A DNA stretch of 64,000 nucleotides from an uncultured Gammaproteobacteria bacterium (GCA_963793005.1 CAWBYP010000006.1:26785-90784), one strand, 5' to 3'. Shown: positions 279 to 53,755, counted from the stretch's first letter. The notes: a model not told the origin generated them from the sequence alone. Program-made: numbers and translations.

Positions 279-2075
279 GTGGCGCAATCTGCAGACGTTT
301 TCCTCAGCTACTCGCGCGAAGACAAGACCCGGGTGCTCGATCTCGCGGGCAAGCTGCGGGCCGCCGGCGTAAATCTCTGGATCGACCAGGGCGGGATCGA
401 CGGAGCCGCGCTCTGGGGCGAGTCCATCGTCCGTGCGCTTGAAGGCGCGAAGGTGCTGCTGCTGATGGTGACACCATCGGCGGTCAACTCACACAACGTC
501 GCCAAGGAAGTGATGCTGACAAGCGAGCGCAAGGGCAACATCCTTCCCGTTCATCTCGAACCGACGACGATTCCCCTCGGCCTCAAGTACCCGCTCGCCG
601 GTATCCAGCACATCGAGTTCTACCACGGCGACCCGGACGACAACCTGCAGGCGGTACTTCGCTCGCTCGACTCGCTGGGCGTGAAGATCACGCCGCCAAC
701 TGCGGTCGTCGCACCCGGCGTCGACGCGCAGCCCGGCGCAGCATTCGCCGGACACGCGACGCATCCAGCCGAATCCCTGCCGGAAGGCGGGGCGTTGGCC
801 GTCCTGCCGTTCGACAACATCAGCCCGGATCCGGAGACCGACTATTTCAGCGATGGCCTCACCGAGGAACTGATCGCGAGGCTGTCGCTGGTGAGCGAGA
901 TCAACCTGATCTCGCGCTGGGCATCGATGCAGCACAAGGGACGCGGACAGGATATCCACGCGATCGGCAACGCGCTCGGCGCGCGCTACATCGTCGGCGG
1001 CGGCGTGCGCCGGTTCCAGGACTCGGTGCGGATCACCGTGCAGCTGGTAGACATCGCAACCAACCTGCAGCTCTGGGGAAACACCTACAAGGGCAAGCTC
1101 GACGACATCTTCGACATCCAGGAACAGGTCGCCCAGCAGATCGTCGAGGCGCTGAAGCTGAAGCTCAGCTTCACTGAAAAGCTCTCGCTCACCAAGCGCC
1201 AGACGCTGAACGCCGAGGCCTACGACCTCTACCTGCGGGGCCAGGACCAGCTCTACCGTCTGACCAAGCGCAGCGTCGAGTACGCGATCCAGCTGTTCGA
1301 GAAGGCCATCGAGCTCGATTCGCGCTATGCCTCCGCCTATGCGGGATGTTCGAGCGCCTACGGCCAGATGTACCAGTTGATCGCCCGCGAGGAGCGCTAC
1401 CGGGAACTGGCGCAGGAACTCAGCTTCAAGGCGCTGATGTACGACAACAATCTCTCCGAAGCCTACCGGGCGATGGGCTTGTCGTATTTCCTGTGGGGAA
1501 AGATGGATGAGGCCACGGCCTCGTGCACCAAGGCAGTTGAAATCGATCCCGACGACTTCATCGCCCACTGGACGCTGGGACGGATCTATTTCACGGAAGG
1601 CAGACTCGAGCAGGCACTGAAGCTTTTCCGCAGGGTGGCCGAGATCAAGCCGAGCTTCTACGCGGGGCATCTCGACGTCGCGCAGACGTGCACGGGTCTC
1701 GGGCTGGACGAGGAAGCCGCGGTGGTCAATCGCCGCCTGCTCGAAATCATGCCGAACTACCTGCTGCAGAATCCCGACGATGCACGGGCGCGGCTGATCT
1801 ACGCAAGCAAGCTCGGCCTGGCAGGTCGCAAGGACGAGGCGATCAGCGAAGGCACCAAGGCGCTGGTGTTGAGTCCCGGGGACCCCGTGATGCTCTACAA
1901 CGCCGCCTGCATGTACGTGAGCCTCGGCGAGTCCGAGCGCGCCCTCGACGCACTGCGCCAGGCGGTCGAGTCGGGATATACGAACTTCGGCTGGATGCAG
2001 AACGATCCGGACCTGGTTCCACTACGCGAACACCCGGAATTTGTCGATTTGATGCGCCTGATGAAGCCGGAGTAG
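279..2075 (+). CDS. TIR domain - TolB_N-like (COG5616-type) - TPR repeat protein
   Basis: 598-aa ORF with GTG start. The N-terminus 'DVFLSYSREDKTRVLDLAGKLRAAGVNLWID...LLLMVTPSAVNSHNVAKEV' looks like a TIR_2-type domain. The middle 'LAVLPFDNISPDPETDYFSDGLTEELIARLS...RITVQLVD...LWG' is the module seen in cyclase/regulator-TPR proteins. The C-terminal half contains several TPR-like repeats. Confidence 0.85.
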   Translation: MAQSADVFLSYSREDKTRVLDLAGKLRAAGVNLWIDQGGIDGAALWGESIVRALEGAKVLLLMVTPSAVNSHNVAKEVMLTSERKGNILPVHLEPTTIPLGLKYPLAGIQHIEFYHGDPDDNLQAVLRSLDSLGVKITPPTAVVAPGVDAQPGAAFAGHATHPAESLPEGGALAVLPFDNISPDPETDYFSDGLTEELIARLSLVSEINLISRWASMQHKGRGQDIHAIGNALGARYIVGGGVRRFQDSVRITVQLVDIATNLQLWGNTYKGKLDDIFDIQEQVAQQIVEALKLKLSFTEKLSLTKRQTLNAEAYDLYLRGQDQLYRLTKRSVEYAIQLFEKAIELDSRYASAYAGCSSAYGQMYQLIAREERYRELAQELSFKALMYDNNLSEAYRAMGLSYFLWGKMDEATASCTKAVEIDPDDFIAHWTLGRIYFTEGRLEQALKLFRRVAEIKPSFYAGHLDVAQTCTGLGLDEEAAVVNRRLLEIMPNYLLQNPDDARARLIYASKLGLAGRKDEAISEGTKALVLSPGDPVMLYNAACMYVSLGESERALDALRQAVESGYTNFGWMQNDPDLVPLREHPEFVDLMRLMKPE

Positions 2076-2090
2076 CGACGCAGGCGCAAC

Positions 2091-3809
2091 CTAGTGCGGA
2101 TTGCGCGTTCCGTTCGCGGCGGCCACGCGCCGCTGCGGCCGCCTCCACACCCAGCCCGCCGGGCCGTCGTGTCCGGTCAACACATAGTCGCGGATGTTCG
2201 GGTTGAACAGCATCGGCCGCTGTCGCTCGCGCGCGGCACTGCGGCCGGCGAACAGCAGCCGGTCTCCCGGATTGAGCTGCAGCGAGTCGTTCGGCAGCGC
2301 AATCTTCTCCGAGCTGCGCTCCAGGTAGAGAGGCACGCAGGCCAGCTGCGCATCGCGTTCCGCCGGATCGCGGACCAGGTCGCCAAGTGTGGCGTGTCCG
2401 CCGTCCATCAGCAGTCGATAGAACGTCGGCGCCTCGCTGATGTTCAGCGTCACGCTCCACATGGCGGGTGCGCGCTGACCGATCCGTTGCTCGAGCCGCT
2501 CGATGAGCGCGCTCGCCCATTCGGCACTCTCAGCCGATGCGATCACCAGGAACGACCACAGCAGCGGCGCGCGGATCACGGCAAGGCATTCGCTCGCGAT
2601 CAGCTCGCTCGATACCATGGTCATGTCGGCGTCGAATGCGTCGAACAGCGCCCGGGTGGCCTGCAGGTTCTGGCGGACGATCGTGAAAAGCCGGGGATTC
2701 AGTTCTCGCGCGGTCACCACGATCGACAGGTTGTTCACGTCATCGTCGGTGCCCGCCACGATGCCGGACGCCTCGCGAATCCCTGCCTCGACCAGTGGCC
2801 CGGCCTCGGTACCGGTGCCGCGGACCGTGGGAAGGTCGGTCCCGGACGGCGCATTCGGGTCGATGACGGTCACCTCCAGCCCGTGGGCGTGGAATGCCCG
2901 GACAACCTCGCGTCCAAACCGCCCGTAACCGCAAACCACCCACCTGCCCCGCGGCGGCGCAGCCGCGGGTTCCAGTACCGTTCCCGGCAGTCCGGTCAGC
3001 CACGCGACGAGCCTGTAGTTGACCGGCGCCGCAACGGCGAGCGCAAGCTGTTGCCCGAACCGGGCGAACGGATTGATGATCCGGTGCGTGCCGAACGATT
3101 CCATGTTGGCTGCTGTTTCCCGGCTCATGGCGCGGGCCAGCACCGGTACATTGGGTTCGAGCAGGCGCACCGTCATCGCGACCGCGAGGTTGGCCTGGTC
3201 GTCGTTGGTGAGCGCAAGCACGCCCCTGCACTGGTCCTTGCGCAGTCCCGCGGCAATCAGGTTGTCGGGCAGCCGGGCGTCTGCCGCCAGCGCGAGCGGC
3301 ACTTGCCGGAAGTCCATCAGGTCCATTTCCTGGACCCGGGTCTCGTCGACTTCCACGACGACGAAGCGCCGGCCACGCAGGTCCAGCGCCTGCGCGACCA
3401 GCCGGCCCGTCTCGCCGATCCCGCAGATGATGAAAAACGGCTCGACGATCGAACGCACTCTGCGATTGAAGCGCGCATCGACGTAGGCCTTGCGCACTGC
3501 CTTGTCGCGCCCGAGCGCGAGCAGGCTGGCGACCAGGTAGGCCCAGCCGAGCACGGAGGCAAAGATGATCACCACCACCCAGAGGCGCTGGCCGTCGGTG
3601 AAGCCTTGCGGAATCTCGCCGAAGCCGATCGTGCTCGCGGTGTAGGTCATGAAGTAGAAGGCCTGGAACAGCGACATGTGCCAGGGCTGGCCGTCCTGGT
3701 CCACGCCGGGGATCAGCACCAGGCCCACCATGCCGACCGCGAACACCACGATCAGCACGATGATCGGCGCCCGCAGGCGCCGCAACGTGAGCAGCAGCGT
3801 GCTGTTCAC
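2091..3809 (-). CDS. 2-TM potassium-channel-like protein with tandem RCK/TrkA-N domains
   Basis: 572-aa ORF. Two hydrophobic helices flank the pore loop 'TYTASTIGFGEIP'. Two Rossmann-type RCK modules follow ('ICGIGETGR', 'VCGYGRFGR'). Confidence 0.85.
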   Translation of the reverse strand: MNSTLLLTLRRLRAPIIVLIVVFAVGMVGLVLIPGVDQDGQPWHMSLFQAFYFMTYTASTIGFGEIPQGFTDGQRLWVVVIIFASVLGWAYLVASLLALGRDKAVRKAYVDARFNRRVRSIVEPFFIICGIGETGRLVAQALDLRGRRFVVVEVDETRVQEMDLMDFRQVPLALAADARLPDNLIAAGLRKDQCRGVLALTNDDQANLAVAMTVRLLEPNVPVLARAMSRETAANMESFGTHRIINPFARFGQQLALAVAAPVNYRLVAWLTGLPGTVLEPAAAPPRGRWVVCGYGRFGREVVRAFHAHGLEVTVIDPNAPSGTDLPTVRGTGTEAGPLVEAGIREASGIVAGTDDDVNNLSIVVTARELNPRLFTIVRQNLQATRALFDAFDADMTMVSSELIASECLAVIRAPLLWSFLVIASAESAEWASALIERLEQRIGQRAPAMWSVTLNISEAPTFYRLLMDGGHATLGDLVRDPAERDAQLACVPLYLERSSEKIALPNDSLQLNPGDRLLFAGRSAARERQRPMLFNPNIRDYVLTGHDGPAGWVWRRPQRRVAAANGTRNPH

Positions 3810-42330: not shown

Positions 42331-42831
42331 ATGCTGCAGATAGACGCTTACAAGCTGCTCTTCACGGGCAAGAGCATCATTCTTGGAATGGTGAAGGATG
42401 TCCACGACGACGACTGGTTCAAGCCCTTGCCGGGCCTCGGACGGTCCTTCGACTGGGTGTTCGGCCACTATGCCGCAGTCGAGGACTGGTTCCTGCATCA
42501 TCTCAACGGCGACCCCTACGAGACCTCGAAAGAATGGCAGGACATGTACTGGGCCGATAACAGCGGGCCCGTGGACCCGACCAAGGGAGTCGGCCGGGCC
42601 GGCGTGACCGCAGCATTCGAGAAAACTCGCCAACGGCTGTTCACTGCCCTCAAGTTCGACCTATTTCACCTCAACCGCTTCATCAAGCCGGGCATCTTCC
42701 CGAGCGACGTCAAGACGCGCGGCGACGCCTGGCTGTTCATTTCCGCGCACGCGTACTGGCACGTCGGCGAACTCGAGTCGCTGCGCGGCATGAACGGCTA
42801 TCCCTACAACGGTGGCGGCATCCATCACTGA
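42331..42831 (+). CDS. DinB-superfamily protein
   Basis: 166 aa. The helical-bundle pattern with His residues ('FGHYAAVEDWFLHHL', 'HAYWHVGE') is typical of DinB/YfiT-like proteins. Confidence 0.7.
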   Translation: MLQIDAYKLLFTGKSIILGMVKDVHDDDWFKPLPGLGRSFDWVFGHYAAVEDWFLHHLNGDPYETSKEWQDMYWADNSGPVDPTKGVGRAGVTAAFEKTRQRLFTALKFDLFHLNRFIKPGIFPSDVKTRGDAWLFISAHAYWHVGELESLRGMNGYPYNGGGIHH

Positions 42832-44171
42832 TCGAGTGGTGGAAAGTAACGGTCCACGAGGCCCCGGGAATAGGCGACCGTGTTGCCCACGGTCTCGAAT
42901 CCCAGCAGCGAGCTGTCGTAGAAAGTCTGCTGGAATCCCTGCAACGACTCCAGCTGGTCATAAAAACCCGCGCTGAAGTCGGCCAGGCTCACGTGCGGGA
43001 AATAGCGCCAGCCGTGCTGGCTGTGTTTCTCGACCAGGCGCGCAGGCTTGCCCTTGTAGTCGGGCAGCTTCGCAACCTGGGCCCTGATCCGTTCCTCGAT
43101 CTCGCCCTTGTCGTAGCCTTCCGACGGCGACAGGTTGAAGAAGATCGTCATGTCGCTGTCGTCGTAGATCTTGATGTAGCCGGTATAGTCCAGCATCGGC
43201 GGCAGTGGAATGGTCCCGACCACACCGGCAGGGACCCCTTCCACGCGGCAGGCCGTCGTGACGAACTCCACGTAGCGAACCTTCTCAAGCAGACGGCTCT
43301 CCTGCGCGCTGAGGTCCAGGCCAAGCCCTGAAAGGGTCGTGACGTCCAGCGGGCAGGCCAGGATCAACTGGTCGAACTTCCGGGACGGCCGGTCGCCGGC
43401 GAACTCTATTTCAACCTCGATGACGTTGCCGTCCGCAGCCTGCTTGCGACGAATGGCGCGGATCCCGGCATCGAGCTGGACGTCGACCTCCCTGGCAACC
43501 GCGTCCCACAGCGACTGGAAGCCGTGCTTGAACACGCGCGGCCAGTACTGGACGATACCGGCCACGTGCAGCACGTTGGACAGCCAGTTGCGCAGCCCCT
43601 GGAACTTGACGAAGTAGGCAGCCGGGATCTCGTCGAGTCGGCCGAAGCCCTGCACCTTCATCACGAACAGGATTGTTTCCTGCAGGGCTTCGAGGCGCCG
43701 CTGCTTGAGCCAGCTCGCGAGCGGCTGCAGCAGCTCGGGCGGCGCATTTGCGAAACCCGACCCGGGCTGGGAGAACTTCCTGAACCGCGTGAGCAGCATC
43801 CACGTGTAGCGCAGCGACGCCCACACGACCTGGAGTTTCCCGTAGCCGCCGGATTGCGTGGCCGTCAGCATGTCCATGTAGCGTCGGCTGCCGCGGTCGT
43901 ACACCAGCACGTCCTGGTAGCCCGTGGTCGGCACCTTGAGCGCCGTGGCGATGTCCATCACGTCGCCGTAGCCGGCCAGCATTTCGTGCGCCGCCATGTC
44001 GAACTGCCGCCCCTCGTAGTCGAAGCTCAGGCACTTGCCGCCGACCCGTTCGATCTTCTCGAACACGTGCACATCACGGTAGCCGTTCTGCTTCAGGAAC
44101 CATGCGGCACTCATGCCGGCCGGGCCGGCGCCGATGATGGCGATTCGGGGCTGTTTTTGTTTTCCGGTCAC
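42825..44171 (-). CDS. FAD-dependent oxidoreductase (amine-oxidase / desaturase-like), copy A
   Basis: The dinucleotide fold is 'RIAIIGAGPAGMSAAWFLKQNGYRDVHVFEKIERVGGKC'. A GTG start at 44171 sits 2 nt after the upstream paralogue's TGA. Confidence 0.8.
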   Translation of the reverse strand: MTGKQKQPRIAIIGAGPAGMSAAWFLKQNGYRDVHVFEKIERVGGKCLSFDYEGRQFDMAAHEMLAGYGDVMDIATALKVPTTGYQDVLVYDRGSRRYMDMLTATQSGGYGKLQVVWASLRYTWMLLTRFRKFSQPGSGFANAPPELLQPLASWLKQRRLEALQETILFVMKVQGFGRLDEIPAAYFVKFQGLRNWLSNVLHVAGIVQYWPRVFKHGFQSLWDAVAREVDVQLDAGIRAIRRKQAADGNVIEVEIEFAGDRPSRKFDQLILACPLDVTTLSGLGLDLSAQESRLLEKVRYVEFVTTACRVEGVPAGVVGTIPLPPMLDYTGYIKIYDDSDMTIFFNLSPSEGYDKGEIEERIRAQVAKLPDYKGKPARLVEKHSQHGWRYFPHVSLADFSAGFYDQLESLQGFQQTFYDSSLLGFETVGNTVAYSRGLVDRYFPPLDQ

Positions 44172-44173
44172 GA

Positions 44174-45530
44174 TCAGGCCCTCGCTGCAAAATGGGTCTG
44201 CACCAGGTGGTGCGAATATTCCGCAATGCATTCGACCAGCTCGAAGGCCAGCAGGCCACCGCAATAGAACGTACGGTTCTCGCCCTGCATAGCCTCCAGC
44301 TCACTGTAGAAACCTGCGTCGACCGCAGCGCATGGCACGTGCGGGAAGTAGGCCCAGTCGTCGCTGTTCAATGGCGCCGCATCGGGATCCTGCGCCGCTA
44401 TTTCACCGAGGAACCTGCGGTTGTTGGCCTCGATTTTCTCCCTGCCGATCGTCTCTTCGCGATCGCCCCGTGAATAGATCGAGATGAAGTTGCTCTCCGG
44501 ATACTGGCGCGTCACGACGTGGGGCTCACCCAGCGCGGGTTCCGGCAGCGAGAAAGTGACCGCGGCCACGCGCTCGGTGCCCGGCGCCATGTAGGTCGTG
44601 ACGAAGAACGGGTTGACGTCGACCTGCTCGAACAGCTTCGTTTCCTTGTCACTCAGATCGAGGAACTCGAGCACCTCCGGCAGTTGCGGGCAGGCGAGTA
44701 CCAGGTAGTCGAAGGTCGCCGTCTCGCGGACAGTGATGTCCTGCTCGAGCTGCTGCTCCAGCAGCCGGTACTGGACGTGTATCTGCTCGCCCCGCGTGAT
44801 GCTCACAATCTCCACCCCGGTGAGCACGTCCACCTCGGCCGCCAGCCGCTCGAACATGCGGCCGTAGCCCTGCGTGAACCGCTTCGGCCAGCGGCGCAAC
44901 GGCATGTTGGCGGCGAACATCCCCAGGTTGAGGAACGTCTTTGGGACTCATGTAGGTCAGGGCGTACGCCGCGGCAATGTCATCGAGGTCGCCATAGCCC
45001 ATCAGCGTCAGCGGAATCTCGAACATCTCGCCGAGGCCATCCAGTCGATGTCGGCGCAGCCAGTCGGCAAAGCTTCCCTGCAGTTCCGGACAGTCGCGCA
45101 CGTGGCCGAAGCCCGGCCTGGCGGGCGACAGCAGGCCGCGCATGCGCCAGCGTATGAACAGGAAACGCAGCGACTGCCAGGCCAGCGTGAAAAACGAGGT
45201 GCGGCTCAACACCTCGGCCAGGATCGAGCGCATTTCGCCGGTCTTCACGTTGATCGTGTGCCCGGCCTTCTCGGTGTACATGCCGGCGCCGACATGCGCC
45301 GCAAGCTCACGCACCCGCGTGTATGCGGAGGTAATGTAGTTGGCGCCCAGGTCGAAGGATTGACCGTCCACGGTAAGCGACCGGCACTTGCCGCCGAGCC
45401 GCGGCGACCGCTCCAGCACCTGCACGTGCCTGAAACCAGCCAGTTTCAGGTACCAGGCGGTGCACAGCCCGGCGGCGCCCGCCCCAACGATCACGATGCG
45501 CGCATCGCGCGGAATGCCTGCTGTCTTCAT
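44174..45530 (-). pseudogene. FAD-dependent oxidoreductase, copy B (paralogue of copy A), frame broken at about 44944
   Basis: The N-terminal part (44649-45530 ORF) reads 'RIVIVGAGAAGLCTAWYLKLAGFRHVQVLERSPRLGGKC...AAAYALTYMS'. The C-terminal part (44174-44920 ORF) reads 'MFAANMPLRRWPKRF...'. Removing one C from the coding-strand CCC (plus-strand GGG 44943-44945) gives '...TYMSPKTFLNLGMFAAN...', which is colinear with copy A. Confidence 0.8.
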
Positions 45531-45704: not shown

Positions 45705-47423
45705 ATGACCCCTGACGCCAACAGGCAGGATTCACTACACTTGGCTCCCTCCAACCGGACCGAAGGCCGTGATTTGGTAACCGTCGAGTCCAGATCTGCC
45801 AAGCTCTTTGTAAGCTATGCCTCGGATGATCGCCGGCTGATCGCGCCCCTCGTGGATTTCCTACGCGCCCAGGGCTGGGAGGTCTGGTGGGACCGCCAGC
45901 TGGACGCGGGTGAGGCGTTCGACCGGCGCATCGAGAGAGAACTGGCTGCAGCCGACTGCGTGGTCGTGGTCTGGTCGCGGACGTCCGTCGCCTCCAACTG
46001 GGTGCTGAGCGAAGCGATGGCCGGGTTCGAGTCGAGTCGACTCGTCCCGGTGGCATTGGACGCCCGGCTGTCGATTCCACTGCCCTTCAATCGTGTCCAC
46101 GCCGCCTCGCTGGTGGACTGGACCGGCACTCCGGAGCACCCGGGGCTCGAGGAACTTGCGGAGGGCATCCGAGCCACGATCAGCACGCTCGGCATGCGCG
46201 GCATCCAGGCGCGAGGATCGTCGAGTGAGCACAAGGCGGTGGTCGCGGTGCTGCCCTTCGACGACCTCGATGCGGCCGGAGCAGCGCGGCCCGCCTGTTC
46301 GATTGTCCCGAACAAGCTCATCGCGGCGCTGGGCCATTTCCCGGGGCTGGATACCTTGTCGCGCCGGGCGAGTTTCGACGCCGGGCTCCAGTCGCTGGAG
46401 ATACGCGCCATTGCCCGCGCCCTGCGCGCCGACTTCGTCGTCACGGGCAGCGTTTCGGGCACCGGCAGCGAGATGGTGCTGGGCGTCGAACTCATCGAGG
46501 GCGAAACCGGCAGGCAGACCTGGAGCATGACCGTGACGCCGGACGAATCGGGGGTACTGGAACCTGATACGGCCGCGGCCGAGATTGCCCGGGCCTTGAG
46601 TGGCGAATTCCTGCGACTGCGCCGTGCGTCCGCCCAGGACGGTGCCGCTCGCGGTGACAGCTGGAGCGTGGTCGAAGCCGGCCGACAGACACTGCTGCAA
46701 AGCAGCAGCAACGCAATCGTAGACGCGAAGCTGGAGGCGCAACGTGCGCTCGCCCTTGCCCCCGGAAACGGTCACGCCCACGCCCTGCTCGCTTCCGCGA
46801 TCGCCGAGGAAATCGTCAACGGCTATACCTGCGACCTCGATCTCGCACGCAACGAGGCGCTCAAGGAAGTCGAACGAGCCCTGGTGCTCTGCTCGGACGA
46901 CCCGGTAGTGCTGAAATATGCCGGGCATGTGTACGCGATCTGCGGCGAGCACGAGCAGGGCGAGCGCGTGCTGCGACGGGCGCTCGAGCTCAACCTGTAC
47001 GACGAAGGCACCTACGGCTACCTCGGCTGGGTGCTTGCCCCTTCGACTTCCCCCGTGCACCTCGCCGAGATCAGGACAGTGCTGGACAGGCTGCTGGCAG
47101 GCGCACGCAAGCACCCGGGCAGGCCATTCTGGTTCCTGCATCGATCGGTGGCCCTATCCTGCAGCGGCGACTTCGAAGGCGCACTGGCAGCGGCGCGCGA
47201 CGCAATGAACTTCAGCCCCAGCCTCACGCTGGCGTGGCTGCACGCCGTGAACGCGCTGGCCCAGCTCGGGCGAATCGATGAAGCGCGCGCGCTGGTCAAT
47301 CGATGCCCGCTCGACATCGCGCGCACAGGCGTTTCATGGGCGAACCTGGTCCGGCTGATTTCCAGGGACGAGGCCGCCGCGGAACTTCGCACCGCAGGCC
47401 TCAGGCAACTGGAACTGGCGTGA
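45705..47423 (+). CDS. TIR domain - TolB_N-like - TPR repeat protein (second paralogue)
   Basis: 572 aa. The TIR part is 'KLFVSYASDDRRLIAPLVDFLRAQGWEVWWD...VVVWSRTSVASNWVLSEAMA'. The TolB_N-like opening is 'AVVAVLPFDDLD'. The C-terminal half is TPR-like. The order matches the 279-2075 protein. Confidence 0.85.
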   Translation: MTPDANRQDSLHLAPSNRTEGRDLVTVESRSAKLFVSYASDDRRLIAPLVDFLRAQGWEVWWDRQLDAGEAFDRRIERELAAADCVVVVWSRTSVASNWVLSEAMAGFESSRLVPVALDARLSIPLPFNRVHAASLVDWTGTPEHPGLEELAEGIRATISTLGMRGIQARGSSSEHKAVVAVLPFDDLDAAGAARPACSIVPNKLIAALGHFPGLDTLSRRASFDAGLQSLEIRAIARALRADFVVTGSVSGTGSEMVLGVELIEGETGRQTWSMTVTPDESGVLEPDTAAAEIARALSGEFLRLRRASAQDGAARGDSWSVVEAGRQTLLQSSSNAIVDAKLEAQRALALAPGNGHAHALLASAIAEEIVNGYTCDLDLARNEALKEVERALVLCSDDPVVLKYAGHVYAICGEHEQGERVLRRALELNLYDEGTYGYLGWVLAPSTSPVHLAEIRTVLDRLLAGARKHPGRPFWFLHRSVALSCSGDFEGALAAARDAMNFSPSLTLAWLHAVNALAQLGRIDEARALVNRCPLDIARTGVSWANLVRLISRDEAAAELRTAGLRQLELA

Positions 47424-47481
47424 CCGGCCGAATGCTCATGCGCAGCTGCCCGGTTGGCCGTTCGATTCCAGGGACCAGATC

Positions 47482-48126
47482 GTGAATGACCGGTTGAAGA
47501 GCGAGTTCATGGCACTGTGGCTGGGCGTTGCCGACGACGAGCCGGCTCACGCCGAGCATGTCTGCCAGGTCCTGCTCGATCGATACGCCGAGCCAGGCAG
47601 GCACTACCACAACCTCGACCACGTCGAGCACTGCCTGGGACAGGCCCGGCTGGTGACCGGGCTGCTGCCCGACTCGAGCGCGCTCGAGCTGGCGATATGG
47701 TTCCACGATAGCGTGTATAACCCGCTGGCAAGGGACAACGAGGCCAGGAGTGCGGCGCTGTTCCGCGAACTCGCCTCGCCGGTGATGACCCCGGCTATCG
47801 AGGATGACGTAGAGCGCCTGGTGCTGGTGACGCAGGCCGGCCAGCTCCCGCAACGGGACGACGAAAGGTACATGGTCGACATCGATCTCTCGAGCTTTGG
47901 ATTGCCATGGGAACCATTCCTGGCGGACAGTCTTGCAGTGCGCGCCGAGCGGCCGCACCTGACCGACGAGCAATACGCGGTGCAGCAGTCGAGGTTCCTC
48001 AATGGCCTGCTGCAGCGCGATGCGGTGTTCACCACCGAGTTCTTCCGCAAGCGCTACGAAGAGGTTGCGCGCTCTAATATCAGCCGGTACCTCGAGGCCA
48101 TTGCCCCGGCACCCCGTGGGCATTGA
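47482..48126 (+). CDS. HD-superfamily metal-dependent phosphohydrolase (COG4339-like)
   Basis: 214 aa. Motifs 'RYAEPGRHYHNLDHVEHCL' and 'AIWFHDSVYNP'. The GTG start is 58 nt after the TIR gene. The antisense 273-aa ORF is rejected. Confidence 0.75.
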   Translation: MNDRLKSEFMALWLGVADDEPAHAEHVCQVLLDRYAEPGRHYHNLDHVEHCLGQARLVTGLLPDSSALELAIWFHDSVYNPLARDNEARSAALFRELASPVMTPAIEDDVERLVLVTQAGQLPQRDDERYMVDIDLSSFGLPWEPFLADSLAVRAERPHLTDEQYAVQQSRFLNGLLQRDAVFTTEFFRKRYEEVARSNISRYLEAIAPAPRGH

Positions 48127-48147: not shown

Positions 48148-49839
48148 ATGACCGTCGAGGCCGAGCGCAGTTCGTCCCGCTTCGAAAGCTGGCGCAGCGC
48201 GACGCTGGCCCCGTTCGAGCATCGCGCATTTGCGCTGTTCTGGTGGGCCTCGCTTGCGTCATCGTTCGGCAGCATGATCCAGACCGTCGGCGCCTCGTGG
48301 CTGATGGCCACGATCGCGCCCTCCGCCGACCAGGTCGCGCTGGTCCAGACGGCGAACGCCCTGCCCTTCTTCTTCCTGTCGCTGGTGGCCGGTGCACTGG
48401 CAGACACGCGCGACCGCCGGTCGATCATGCTGGTTGGGCAGATGCTGTCGCTGCTGGCTTCAGCGGCACTGGCAATCGTGATGCTGGCCGGCGGCATCAC
48501 GCCATCGACCCTGCTCGGGCTGACGTTCCTGATCGGCTGCGGCGGCGCCGTATTTGCCCCTGCCTGGCAGGCGTCCATCGGGGACCAGGTGCCGCGAACG
48601 CAGATCGCACCTGCCGTGATGGCCAATGCGGTCGGCTTCAACCTCGCCCGCAGTATCGGGCCGGCGATTGGCGGCGTGATCGTGGCGGCAGTCGGTGCAG
48701 CGGCAGCGTTCATCCTCAACGCCGTGTCGTACCTCGGGATCATCGCGACACTGGCCTGGTGGCGACCCGCAAGGGTTCGCAGCGAACTGCCGCCGGAGCC
48801 GCTCGCCACTGCAATCGCAGCCGGCGTGCGCTACGTGAGCCTCTCGCCGCACCTGATCGCCATACTGCTGCGCTGCGTGCTCTACACGATACCGATCGCT
48901 GCCGTGATGGCGCTGATGCCCATCGTCGCCCGCGACCTGCTCGGCGGAGGAGCCGCCACCTACGGCATCCTGCTCGGCGGCTTTGGCGTCGGCGCGATGC
49001 TGGGCGCGCTCTCCAGCGCCACGCTGCGCGGCCGCGTGTCCAGCGACGCCCTGCAGCGCATCCTGTCCGCGCTCGCCTGCGTGGCCATGGTCGCGATCGG
49101 CCAGAGTCGCTGGGCGGCGCTCACCTTCTTCGCGCACGTGCTGGCGGGTGCGGTGTGGACCCAGGGGTTCGCGAATTTCAACATCGCCGTGCAACTCTCC
49201 TCGCCGCGCTGGGTGACGGGTCGGATGCTGGCGACCTACCAGACCATCGCGTTCGCCAGTATCGCCCTTGGCAGCTGGTGGTGGGGACAGTTCGCAAACG
49301 TGGCCGGCGTACGCGAATCGCTGACCGCGGCCGGGGTCGCGTCGCTGCTGTCGCTGCTGGTCGCGCGCTGGCTGCCGATCGATATAGAGCGCCTTGGCTC
49401 GCTGGATCCGCGTGTCCGGACCGGCCGCGCGCCGCCCAGCGTACACATTCATCCCGCGTCGGGCCCGATCGTCGTCGTCATCGAGTACCGGGTGCTCCCG
49501 GAGCACGCGGTCGAGTTCGTGGCCGTGATCAATGAAGTCGGCCGGATAAGACGCCGCGATGGCGCACGCGCGTGGTCGATCAGCCAGGACATCGACACGC
49601 CCGAGCACTGGGTCGAACGCTTCGAGAGCCCGACGTGGATCGATCACCTGAGATGGCGGAGCCGGCCAACCGTGTCGGACCAGGTCGTGCGTGAGCGTCT
49701 CGATTCCCTGATCGTGGACCAGCAGGCGAGCGTGCGCCGACTGGTCGTGAGGCCTCCAGGTGCGCAGCCACTGGGTGCACCACCGGAGTCGCAGCACGAG
49801 GTCGGCAGGACCGATCGCGGCGCACATGGCGACTGGTGA
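48148..49839 (+). CDS. MFS transporter with C-terminal soluble extension of about 130 aa
   Basis: 563 aa with about 12 TM helices. The tail 'PIVVVIEYRVLPEHAVEFVAVINEVGRIRRRDGARAWSISQD...HWVERFESPTW' looks like a ferredoxin-like (Dabb/ABM-type) domain. Confidence 0.85.
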   Translation: MTVEAERSSSRFESWRSATLAPFEHRAFALFWWASLASSFGSMIQTVGASWLMATIAPSADQVALVQTANALPFFFLSLVAGALADTRDRRSIMLVGQMLSLLASAALAIVMLAGGITPSTLLGLTFLIGCGGAVFAPAWQASIGDQVPRTQIAPAVMANAVGFNLARSIGPAIGGVIVAAVGAAAAFILNAVSYLGIIATLAWWRPARVRSELPPEPLATAIAAGVRYVSLSPHLIAILLRCVLYTIPIAAVMALMPIVARDLLGGGAATYGILLGGFGVGAMLGALSSATLRGRVSSDALQRILSALACVAMVAIGQSRWAALTFFAHVLAGAVWTQGFANFNIAVQLSSPRWVTGRMLATYQTIAFASIALGSWWWGQFANVAGVRESLTAAGVASLLSLLVARWLPIDIERLGSLDPRVRTGRAPPSVHIHPASGPIVVVIEYRVLPEHAVEFVAVINEVGRIRRRDGARAWSISQDIDTPEHWVERFESPTWIDHLRWRSRPTVSDQVVRERLDSLIVDQQASVRRLVVRPPGAQPLGAPPESQHEVGRTDRGAHGDW

Positions 49840-49978
49840 ATCACGCGCTCGCTGACTGGAACCCCGCAGCCGCGCGTGGCCCGGGTGCAACGACTCGTCG
49901 TCGGGACTATCAAACCCATTGCCAGAACCAATTGGATCGCTCGGCGGTCCAAGTCCAGACTGTCTGTAAGCCAGGTAG

Positions 49979-52198
<2,220 letters not shown>

Positions 52199-52224
52199 TC
52201 GCGGAGAACAGGTCCCGTAGAGCA

Positions 52225-53067
52225 ATGAACAAGAATATGCGTTGGTGGCCGGCGCTTGTCGTGCTCGTTGTCGTCGGAGCGGGACTGTACCTGTACCTGG
52301 CTCGATCACCGGAGCCGGTGCAGCCCCCGCCCGGGTCGTCGACTCTGCCCGAAGTGTCCTCCGCAGGGGTAATCCGGCATCCGATCGAGGACATCGCGCA
52401 GGACGCAGAAGGCGTCGCAGGCGAGGAAGTCCCGCCCCTGGACGCGAGCGATGCCTCTGTCGAGGGTGCGGCTGCCGACTTGCTTGGCGGAGAGGCGGTT
52501 CTCGGGCTGGTCAACCCGGGCGACTACATCCGCAAGATCGTTGCCACGGTGGACAACCTGGCACGCGATCGTACGTCCGCGCGGCTGTGGCCGGTGCAGC
52601 CGACACCGGGGCGCTTTACTGTCCGCCAGGAAGACGATCGCACGTACCTCTCAGCCGAGAATTTCCAGCGCTACACCCCGTTCGTCAGCCTGGCGGCGTC
52701 CGTCGACGCCGGGAAGCTGGTCGCGCTGTATGTCCGGTTCTACCCGCTGTTCCAGCAGGCCCACGAAGACCTTGGTTACCCGCAGCAGTACTTCAACGAC
52801 CGGGTGATCGACGTGATCGACAACCTGCTGGCGACGCCCGACCCGGGTGACACGATCGAACTCGTGCTTCCGCCCCAGGATCCGTCGGTCGAGGTCGCGC
52901 GGCCCTGGGTGCTTTACGAATATGCGGATCCCGCGCTTCGGTCGCTATCGGCCGGGCAGAAAATCCTGGTTCGCATGGGACCCGCGAATGCGGACCGGGT
53001 GAAGACCAGCCTTCGCGAGCTGCGCAAGCGACTGGCGGCCGAACCACCTCCACGACCGGCGGCATAG
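52225..53067 (+). CDS. DUF3014-like membrane-anchored protein
   Basis: Start trimmed to 'MNKNMRWWPALVVLVVVGAGLYLYL', an N-terminal TM anchor. The family call is from memory. It lies immediately downstream of katG. Confidence 0.55.
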   Translation: MNKNMRWWPALVVLVVVGAGLYLYLARSPEPVQPPPGSSTLPEVSSAGVIRHPIEDIAQDAEGVAGEEVPPLDASDASVEGAAADLLGGEAVLGLVNPGDYIRKIVATVDNLARDRTSARLWPVQPTPGRFTVRQEDDRTYLSAENFQRYTPFVSLAASVDAGKLVALYVRFYPLFQQAHEDLGYPQQYFNDRVIDVIDNLLATPDPGDTIELVLPPQDPSVEVARPWVLYEYADPALRSLSAGQKILVRMGPANADRVKTSLRELRKRLAAEPPPRPAA

Positions 53068-53212
53068 CACGCGAAAGGCAATACGTAGTTTTGACCCGGC
53101 CCTTGCGTGTCAGATGCCTGGCCTTACCAACAGCGGTCGAACGAACTTACAATTCACCAGGCAAACTCACGCCCACCTGACCGGGCACGTGCTACCGAAG
53201 AGGGGGAACTCC

Positions 53213-53755
53213 ATGTCCACCAGGCTCGACCTCTCCAGGATTTCCCTGATGGACGCCCTCGACCTCGCGGCGCTGATCGAGCTCGAAGCGGTGAAGCGTT
53301 ACACGGAATTCGCCGAGACACTGGGCAGCCGTGGTGGCGACGATGCCGGTGCCGTATTCCAGTCAATGGTTGTCAACGAGAACAAGCACTGCGAAGAGAT
53401 CGCCGAGCGCCGGCTCGCACTGTTCGGCGACAAGCCGCCCAAGGTCACGCTCGACGACATCTTCGACGTGGAGGCTCCGGCGAGCGGTGACGTGCGTTGG
53501 AACATGTCCACGCTGAAGGCGTATCAGCTCGCCCTGTATTCGGAACAGAAGGCTTTCGCTTTCTACGACGAAGCCCTCGACCATGTCGACCAGCCGGAGG
53601 TCAAGGCGCTGTTCGAGGAACTGCGGGAGGAAGAGTCTGAGCATGTCAGGATGCTCGTGAACATCATCGCGAAGTTGCCTCCGTCGGCTGAGACCGAACT
53701 CGAGGACGAGGACTACGATCCGAATCGTCCGGCTCGCGACAGTTTCGAGGCATAG
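53213..53755 (+). CDS. ferritin-like / rubrerythrin-family di-iron protein
   Basis: Start trimmed to 'MSTRLDL', with a GAGGGGGA RBS. The ExxH-type motifs are 'NENKHCEE' and 'EEESEHVRM'. Confidence 0.7.
   Translation: MSTRLDLSRISLMDALDLAALIELEAVKRYTEFAETLGSRGGDDAGAVFQSMVVNENKHCEEIAERRLALFGDKPPKVTLDDIFDVEAPASGDVRWNMSTLKAYQLALYSEQKAFAFYDEALDHVDQPEVKALFEELREEESEHVRMLVNIIAKLPPSAETELEDEDYDPNRPARDSFEA

Follow-up and report, generated by a model that had tools for sequence, protein, structure and literature searches.

What does a TIR protein do beside a small HD hydrolase in the chromosome of a gammaproteobacterium? The question arises from a 64,000-nucleotide (nt) stretch of DNA from an uncultured Gammaproteobacteria bacterium (GCA_963793005.1 CAWBYP010000006.1:26785-90784), the whole of which we refer to as the window. 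Here a gene for a TIR-TolB_N-like-TPR protein is followed on the same strand by one for a COG4339-type HD-superfamily phosphohydrolase and then by an MFS gene, the three co-directional open reading frames (ORFs) being separated by 58 and 21 nt (Table 1). An initial annotation of the window had suggested that the three genes may form one transcription unit, that the TIR and HD proteins could be a producer/degrader or producer/effector pair, and that the arrangement is a candidate nucleotide-signalling or defence-like module. On reading the ORFs, its coordinates, both gap lengths and the motifs that it had picked out (SNWVLSEAMA in the TIR domain, HYHNLDH and FHD in the hydrolase) all hold. The Rosetta-stone evidence described below makes us highly confident that the TIR-TPR and HD proteins are functionally coupled. 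More tentatively, we favour a reading in which they act together within a second-messenger pathway that is chromosomal and nucleotide-based, with the HD protein as its off-switch, rather than a mobile defence island.

Coupling of the TIR and HD proteins across relatives

A genome scan with an alignment of the HD protein returned 80 loci, and a metagenome scan with a TIR alignment returned mostly TIR-only relatives, both search patterns lying within the TIR domain; the latter served as a negative control (loci carry the prefix L, proteins the prefix P). Four of the genome loci, L001-L004, whose HD proteins are 61-96% identical, are syntenic and share genes for a histidine kinase-receiver-cyclase hybrid (HK-REC-cyclase), a DinB_2-family protein, two amine oxidases, the TIR-TPR protein and the HD protein. 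The TIR and HD genes are adjacent in every close Steroidobacteraceae-type relative that could be examined (L001-L004 and the metagenomic loci L085, L086 and L088), and they stay together where both flanks of the surrounding block change; the initial annotation had named synteny across genomes as the check on its proposed pair, and the pair is borne out. The junction between the genes is 58 nt long in the window, L001, L002 and L085, 55 nt in L004 and 12 nt in L086, with extremes in a 4-nt ATGA stop/start overlap (L003) and a spacer of 239 nt (L088). Other relatives encode TIR, middle, TPR and HD domains as a single polypeptide, of which we collected 15 non-redundant full-length examples (760-799 amino acids, aa) and 4 N-truncated fragments from NCBI, JGI, ENA and Logan assemblies, establishing each by sequence reading and blastp; JGI names the full-length proteins 'HD superfamily phosphohydrolase/TolB-like protein'. 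In these fusions the HD domain forms the C-terminus and an in-frame peptide linker takes the place of the spacer. A neighbour-joining tree recovers the TIR-linked HDs as monophyletic, with fused and unfused forms interleaved, and fusion or fission must therefore have occurred more than once. Among proteins that combine a variable head with the TolB_N-like and TPR domains, only this TIR orthologous group carries an HD partner, and the TIR-HD unit is restricted to the Steroidobacteraceae-type clade.

It is extremely improbable that two unrelated genes simply came to lie side by side by chance in one lineage. Outside the clade the two families do occur apart, since no TIR gene lies beside the HD gene at any of the 75 other HD loci (41-53% identity) and none of 75 TIR-only loci has an HD neighbour. 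Chance would nevertheless have to account for the full-length fusions, the stop/start overlap, the short gaps of varying length and the persistence of the pair through changes on both flanks; taken together, fusion and adjacency effectively exclude it. A terminator or promoter within the 58-nt gap would, according to the initial annotation, have spoken against the link, and a pattern scan of the gap found neither a terminator nor a sigma-70 promoter. The predicted RNA fold of the gap is no different from that of shuffled sequences (z +0.72), with no structure beyond chance, scan and fold alike being uninformative, and an Rfam search of 42.0-50.2 kb at E<=1 returned no riboswitch or other RNA family.

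The pair lies at one end of a conserved block of 9 kb (~39.0-48.1 kb), which runs from the 3' end of the HK-REC-cyclase gene to the end of the HD gene. The block is present in L001-L004, L081 and L166, the last two carrying fusion genes in the same syntenic position, and its flanks differ on both sides in L081, L166 and L003. HD identities across the syntenic-block relatives range from 54 to 96%. The region of the pair has ordinary composition and G+C, and there are no mobile-element genes among the neighbouring kinase, oxidase, MFS and catalase genes. The 1142-aa HK-REC hybrid contributes a co-conserved class III cyclase domain 3.4 kb upstream of the TIR gene and is a candidate source of a cyclic nucleoside monophosphate (cNMP) for the HD protein. 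Cyclases also accompany TIR orthologues that have no HD partner: in L087 and L089 (77% identity) a 1134-aa cyclase-AAA_16-TPR gene lies 120 nt upstream (L087 617..4021), and in L082-L084 (53% identity) an amine oxidase gene and then a Pkinase-AAA_16-GAF-cyclase gene lie downstream (L082 7703..13647). As a measure of background, cyclase domains were found in 1 ORF of the 64-kb window and in none of 443 kb of TIR-only control loci.

The two proteins and the contexts of the HD family

The TIR protein contains a Pfam TIR_2 domain at residues 35-149 (E 3e-21; score 76.6 bits, cut-off 28) and TPR_19/TPR_2 matches at residues 402-540. A PDB profile search matched it to AbTIR (8g83, an NAD+ hydrolase), PdTIR, TcpB, RUN1/plant TIRs and SARM1. 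SNWVLSEAMA spans residues 97-106 (nt 45993..46022), and Glu103 within it takes the place of the W-x-x-x-E glutamate when the domain is aligned to four bacterial TIR domains of solved structure, 7uxr, 7uwg, PdTIR (3h16) and BtpA (4c7m), in which the counterparts of SNWVLSE read KNWTEYE, KDWTNYE, KEWPQKE and KQWPARE, respectively. All of 10 orthologues, with identities as low as 36%, retain W99, V100 and E103. Judged by its sequence, the domain has an NADase-type fold with the catalytic motif intact, and cleavage of NAD+ is predicted. The start of the gene is ambiguous between an ATG at 45705 (572 aa) and a TTG at 45774 (549 aa). Gene calls in most relatives begin at the equivalent of the TTG, and the N-terminal 23-33 residues are unconserved in the fusions; because the relatives are called at 549 aa, the TTG may be the start used here.

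For the middle domain, an AlphaFold2 (AF2) model built from a 16-sequence alignment (pLDDT 87) gave Foldseek matches to GNA1162, PelC, FlgT, the TolB N-domain, LpoB and CsgG (E 5e-7 to 1e-5), so that the label 'TolB_N-like' used in the initial annotation is right at the level of the fold. Oligomerisation is a requirement of TIR enzymes. The modelled domain fits such a role because several of its structural relatives form rings, and it probably serves for oligomerisation or as a sensor. Inspection by eye revealed no evident signal peptide or transmembrane helix, and the protein is therefore probably cytoplasmic; some distant homologues have a transmembrane helix between the TIR and middle domains. 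In homologous scaffolds the N-terminal head varies, being Guanylate_cyc in P0218 and P0235 and Trans_reg_C in P0213 and P0232. The protein shares its middle domain, its TPR region and the principle of a variable N-terminal output with X-TolB_N-like-TPR one-component proteins (COG5616 'TolB-like'; headed by a cyclase, winged helix-turn-helix or kinase domain), from which it differs in that its head is a TIR domain and the window copy is soluble. As its description in the initial annotation as a second paralogue implies, the window does hold a first copy (279..2075, plus strand; 598 aa, with canonical TPR_1/TPR_2 repeats), which is 23% identical over residues 29-527 (E 1e-12). Downstream of that copy lies a K+ channel/TrkA-type gene in convergent orientation (2091..3809, minus strand), and neither an HD nor a cyclase gene adjoins it. 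More distant TIR-TolB_N-TPR paralogues occur in varied housekeeping neighbourhoods, again with neither HD nor cyclase.

In the HD protein, HYHNLDH occupies residues 41-47 and FHD residues 74-76. H43, H47, H75, D76, D133 and D135, which compose the HD metal signature, are invariant in 21 homologues and at least 95% conserved across 98 sequences. Searches of Pfam (E<=1), NCBIfam (E<=0.1), PADLOC and PDB (single-sequence and profile) gave no match to this protein; phrog_19425 'phosphohydrolase' matches it at 9.5e-27, and JGI labels its homologues 'predicted metal-dependent HD superfamily phosphohydrolase'. Its AF2 model (pLDDT 95) has ten helices and is most similar in Foldseek to the phosphodiesterases (PDEs) PDE4D, PDE5A, PDE8A and PDE9A, followed by YpgQ-type HD proteins (YpgQ, 2pjq, 3b57), with probabilities of ~1.0 but E values of 0.02-0.1, TM(query) of 0.5-0.64 and root-mean-square deviations (rmsd) of 6-7 Å. 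The spacing H43-(X)3-H47-(X)28-D76 agrees with the signature quoted for class I PDEs, H(X)3H(X)25-35[D/E] (PMC4222275), a signature that is loose and overlaps the generic HD one. With class I PDEs such as PDE4 and PDE5 the HD protein has in common an all-helical HD fold, this spacing and the best structural matches, whereas it differs from them in size (214 aa against a catalytic domain of ~330 aa), in sequence (10-15% identity) and in its lack of any Pfam HD or PDEase_I match at E<=1. The family is large: a cut-off of E<=1e-3 gives 15,933 representative clusters, and one of E<=1e-30 still gives 2,977. In the searchable literature we found no description of it, of COG4339 or its COG name, or of a TIR-HD fusion.

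At 59 of the 75 HD loci outside the TIR-linked clade, a class III cyclase domain is encoded within 2.5 kb, directly downstream in 58 of them; a cNMP_binding protein of ~155 aa is encoded directly upstream of the HD gene in 33; and 66 have one or the other, the domains being confirmed by Pfam. The linked cyclases are of at least three architectures, namely a convergent cyclase with six transmembrane helices, a co-directional cyclase-FHA protein and CHASE2-like long cyclases, which favours a functional link over the inheritance of a single arrangement. The TIR-linked HD clade is nested within this cyclase- and cNMP-linked family. From context, motif and predicted fold, the family is most likely one of cyclic-nucleotide PDEs, and we consider it probable that the HD protein of the window is a PDE acting on a nucleotide messenger; that this messenger is a cNMP made by a cyclase is a tentative further step, to which we give slightly less than even odds.

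The cassette of cNMP_binding, HD and class III cyclase genes, seen in L005-L080 (for example L012 1443..3976 and L008 4473..6092), is one of which we found no description; it is at least partly present at 66 of the 75 HD loci, in Gammaproteobacteria, Nitrospira and others. Two candidate fusions were noted among the top family representatives, a cNMP_binding-HD protein (P0268, 384 aa) and an Na_H_Exchanger-cNMP_binding-HD protein of 1091-1209 aa (P0267; compare L074 4929..8558, plus strand). Both are single examples and could represent read-through of two genes in one frame, there being a Met at the junction. Homologues of the HD protein at 23-33% identity also occur in large and jumbo phages (phrog_19425; phage records H2-H8 and H11-H25), as in Rhodococcus phage Trina gp205 (L172 3028..3621) and Rhizobium phage RHph_N46 (L171 2947..3624). 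Nucleotide metabolism and the removal of host signalling nucleotides are candidate roles, and the phage gene neighbourhoods are uninformative in this respect. A pair of records labelled 'Acinetobacter phage' have the look of bacterial chromosome rather than phage; in one of them (L170, CAKLQH020000004.1, 'Acinetobacter phage MD-2021a') the HD homologue is surrounded by rpoH, thiG, thiS, yaaA and rtcR.

A proposed second-messenger pathway and its rivals

The coupling of the two proteins, the ancestry of the HD domain, its cNMP context, the conserved block and the TIR motif are matters of observation, on which the following scheme builds predictions as to activities, substrate and direction of regulation. 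The co-conserved sensor cyclase would make a cyclic nucleotide, most likely the substrate of the HD protein, which as a metal-dependent PDE would terminate the nucleotide signal. The TIR domain, with its catalytic glutamate, would provide an NAD+-cleaving output, and the TolB_N/PelC-like and TPR domains would serve in oligomerisation and sensing. Tethered or fused to the TIR protein, the HD domain would be placed to reset or tune that protein's own activating signal, a logic that may be compared with that of self-limiting effectors and bifunctional messenger enzymes.

Several observations weigh against this scheme. A Pfam search at E<=0.01 found no cNMP_binding domain in the TIR protein. The HD family has neither a curated model nor a member of known activity. 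The modelled protein bears only a faint structural likeness to PDEs (E ~0.02, rmsd 6-7 Å), and PDE4/5 entries are over-represented in the PDB. His119 and Glu69, which are at least 96% conserved in the cyclase-linked relatives, are lost in the TIR-linked clade, which may mean an altered substrate. Conservation of the block could reflect phylogenetic inertia within one family. Finally, SpdA, for which a substrate had been predicted because it is encoded at a cyclase locus, prefers and hydrolyses 2',3'-cNMP (PMC4222275), a precedent showing that predictions of PDE substrates from context can fail.

Given the contexts of the HD family and the co-conserved cyclase, the initial annotation's scheme of producer and degrader is one of two live models, albeit one that we regard as rather unlikely. 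It would have the TIR domain make an NAD+-derived messenger, a cyclic ADP-ribose (cADPR) isomer or related compound, which the HD protein, re-specialised from a cNMP PDE ancestor, would hydrolyse; the fused form would then be a bifunctional synthase/hydrolase in the manner of Rel/SpoT or GGDEF-HD-GYP proteins. The fusion of messenger producers to HD-type degraders is a recurrent design, and the tight adjacency and fusion of TIR and HD, together with the conserved TIR glutamate, are what it would lead one to expect. The loss of His119 and Glu69 is compatible with a new substrate, and the adjoining cNMP-binding gene and small cyclase gene are both lost beside the TIR-linked HDs. Nonetheless, all 29 strongly conserved core residues, polar ones included, are identical in the TIR-linked and cyclase-linked clades; a class III cyclase is kept in the block and cyclases flank TIR orthologues that have no HD; the block shows no SLOG, Macro, SAVED or similar protein that could be the receptor or effector of a TIR product; and we know of no HD enzyme that cleaves cADPR-type messengers. 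Many TIR domains serve as scaffolds, and it might instead be supposed that the one in the window is a non-enzymatic oligomerisation or adaptor domain, so that the TIR-TolB_N-TPR protein is a sensor or scaffold regulating an HD PDE as the sole catalytic output. The interchangeable N-terminal output or interaction domains of the homologous scaffolds named above and the C-terminal position of HD in the fusions would suit such an arrangement. We think it improbable in view of the invariance of Glu103 and the W-x-x-x-E motif among even the more divergent orthologues and of PDB matches that include deposited NAD+ hydrolases and ADP-ribosyl cyclases (AbTIR 8g83, SARM1 and 7xoz).

Decidedly improbable, in our estimation, is an anti-phage abortive infection system comparable to Thoeris or to Pycsar/Pucsar, whether as a TIR producer with an HD nuclease or NTPase effector or with the TIR protein itself as the NAD+-depleting effector. 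Locally, the TIR domain does match the PADLOC models ThsB, SAVED-TIR, Aga-TIR and PDC-S66, and NCBIfam models for Thoeris type III and retron-TIR match far below their cut-offs; the phage homologues of the HD family could be counter-defence enzymes; and in Pucsar a cyclase makes cGMP that activates the TIR NADase PucTIR (bioRxiv 10.64898/2026.08.12.744502). However, the description 'defence-like' in the initial annotation finds little purchase where the pair is inherited vertically, in a syntenic block whose composition is ordinary and which is free of mobile-element genes. PADLOC matched neither the HD protein nor the full TIR protein, its hits being confined to the TIR domain; the HD protein, as modelled, has no sensor domain able to receive a TIR signal; the associated cyclases are large environmental sensors rather than minimal PycC-type enzymes; and the distant TIR-TolB_N-TPR paralogues lie in housekeeping contexts.

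Set beside known systems, the pair that we read as part of a second-messenger pathway would work most like the cyclase/TIR pairs of Pycsar and Pucsar combined with the logic of a producer and its HD hydrolase, and it is a member of none of them. It has in common with Pycsar/Pucsar the genetic association of a class III-type cyclase with a TIR protein whose catalytic glutamate is intact. It differs in that the TIR protein has TolB_N/PelC-like and TPR domains in place of a cNMP-binding domain, in the tethered or fused HD, in the large sensor cyclases (HK-REC-cyclase and cyclase-AAA_16-TPR, as opposed to minimal PycC/PucC) and in its setting in a conserved chromosomal block rather than a defence island; the Pucsar preprint mentions neither HD proteins nor phosphodiesterases (bioRxiv 10.64898/2026.08.12.744502). 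The resemblance to Thoeris lies in a bacterial NADase-type TIR domain and weak local matches to ThsB models. There is no ThsA-type SIR2/SLOG or Macro effector here, the neighbours being amine oxidases, DinB_2, HD and MFS genes, and in its place stands a small HD hydrolase that lacks a sensor domain; the ThsB matches are partial and the NCBIfam ones far below cut-off. Rel/SpoT, GGDEF-HD-GYP and the plant cyclase-PDE CAPE likewise join a signal generator to an HD-superfamily hydrolase in one polypeptide or operon, with fusion and fission among relatives, but their generators are synthetases or cyclases rather than a TIR domain, and homology is limited to the HD superfamily. BcTir/Tpr of Bacillus cereus, studied as phage defence, also combines TIR and TPR elements, the TPR being reported to modulate production of a cADPR isomer (bioRxiv 10.1101/2023.05.26.542521); there, the TIR and TPR are on separate proteins, and neither a TolB_N-like domain nor an HD is involved. 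Neither the combination of TIR, HD and TPR nor that of a TolB-like domain, cyclase and TIR was found in the searchable literature.

Neighbouring genes and the wider meaning of the pair

Table 1. Features of the TIR-HD locus and its neighbours; positions are counted from the first nucleotide of the window.
Feature	Position	Strand	Basis
TIR_2 - TolB_N/PelC-like - TPR gene	45705..47423	+	ORF, 572 aa; Pfam; orthologues 53-93% identity
TIR domain, residues 35-149	45807..46151	+	Pfam TIR_2; alignment to solved TIR domains
Putative catalytic Glu103 codon	46011..46013	+	Inside motif SNWVLSE (45993..46013)
Middle alpha/beta domain, ~residues 172-322	46218..46670	+	AF2 model, Foldseek, JGI homologue names 'TolB-like protein'
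C-terminal TPR region, ~residues 330-572	46693..47420	+	Pfam TPR_19, TPR_2, TPR_14; PDB profile matches to consensus TPR proteins
Spacer from TIR-TPR stop to HD start, 58 nt	47424..47481	.	ORF boundaries
HD-superfamily phosphohydrolase gene, COG4339-type	47482..48126	+	ORF, 214 aa; without Pfam model
HD motif codons: H43/H47; H75-D76; D133/D135	47608..47622; 47704..47709; 47878..47886	+	Invariant residues
MFS gene	48148..49839	+	ORF, 563 aa; MFS_3, PF05977, E 1e-158
7TMR-DISM histidine kinase - receiver - class III cyclase hybrid, 1142 aa	38897..42325	-	Pfam
DinB_2-family gene within co-conserved block	42331..42831	+	Pfam; block comparison
FAD amine oxidase 1 (AO1) within co-conserved block	42825..44264	-	Pfam; block comparison
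FAD amine oxidase 2 (AO2), divergent from TIR gene; split by 1-nt insertion	44174..45530	-	

The MFS gene, which the initial annotation had counted as a possible third member of the unit, does not belong to it, because its place beside the TIR-HD pair is not conserved. It follows the HD gene only in L001, L002 and L011; its place is taken by a peptidase M14 gene in L081, by a DUF188 gene in L166 and by a homologue of the window sequence at ~53.8 kb in L003, and no MFS match was found downstream of HD in L004. We therefore rejected it as a unit member. It is a lineage-specific neighbour, and its co-transcription with HD in this strain is possible. The stretch that it opens, 48148..53755, is variable, with MFS_3, KatG (50000..52198) and ORFs at 52195..53067 and 53114..53755; it is wholly absent from L003, L001 lacks KatG only, and it is best described as an indel-prone stretch beside the conserved block.

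On the other side of the pair, AO2 is present in the window as two overlapping ORFs and is intact in L081 and L166 (442-455 aa). The break in its reading frame lies at ~44,930-44,945, where the window reads GAGTCCCAAAG and L001, L002 and L003 read GAGT-CCAAAA, and is either a fresh pseudogene mutation or a sequencing error in the C run. The amine oxidase gene between the TIR and cyclase genes of L082 echoes the oxidases of the window block. A link between TIR proteins and amine oxidases was considered as a possibility; tblastn detected no relationship between the oxidase of L082 and either AO1 or AO2. The 'DAO' protein encoded next to the TIR paralogue of L168 belongs to another Pfam family (DAO/DAO_C), and its gene adjoins one for an FGGY kinase, which suggests a GlpK/GlpD-type pair.

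To our knowledge, bacterial TIR enzymes are known almost solely from phage defence. If our preferred reading is true, the connection of a TIR protein that is inherited vertically with a phosphodiesterase and a sensor cyclase would indicate that TIR chemistry also has a part in physiological signalling. A more far-reaching form of the idea, which we put forward as speculation and think somewhat unlikely to be right in full, is that NAD+ cleavage by a TIR domain acts outside immunity as the output of an environmental cNMP pathway, in which the sensor kinase-cyclase would make the cNMP and the TIR-TolB_N-TPR protein would be the regulated NADase or messenger synthase, that the tethered or fused HD domain is both the cNMP-sensing site and the timer that hydrolyses the signal, and that the HD family, with its ~16,000 representative clusters, supplies a missing major class of bacterial class I-like cNMP PDEs. 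For environmental Proteobacteria rich in class III cyclases, we know of few cAMP or cGMP phosphodiesterases. The HD family is very large and uncurated, and from its gene neighbourhoods one can predict, sharply and in a way that is cheap to test, that its members hydrolyse cNMPs as phosphodiesterases. The fusions and fissions found in nature, for their part, offer ready-made constructs bearing on the coupling between a messenger hydrolase and a TIR protein.

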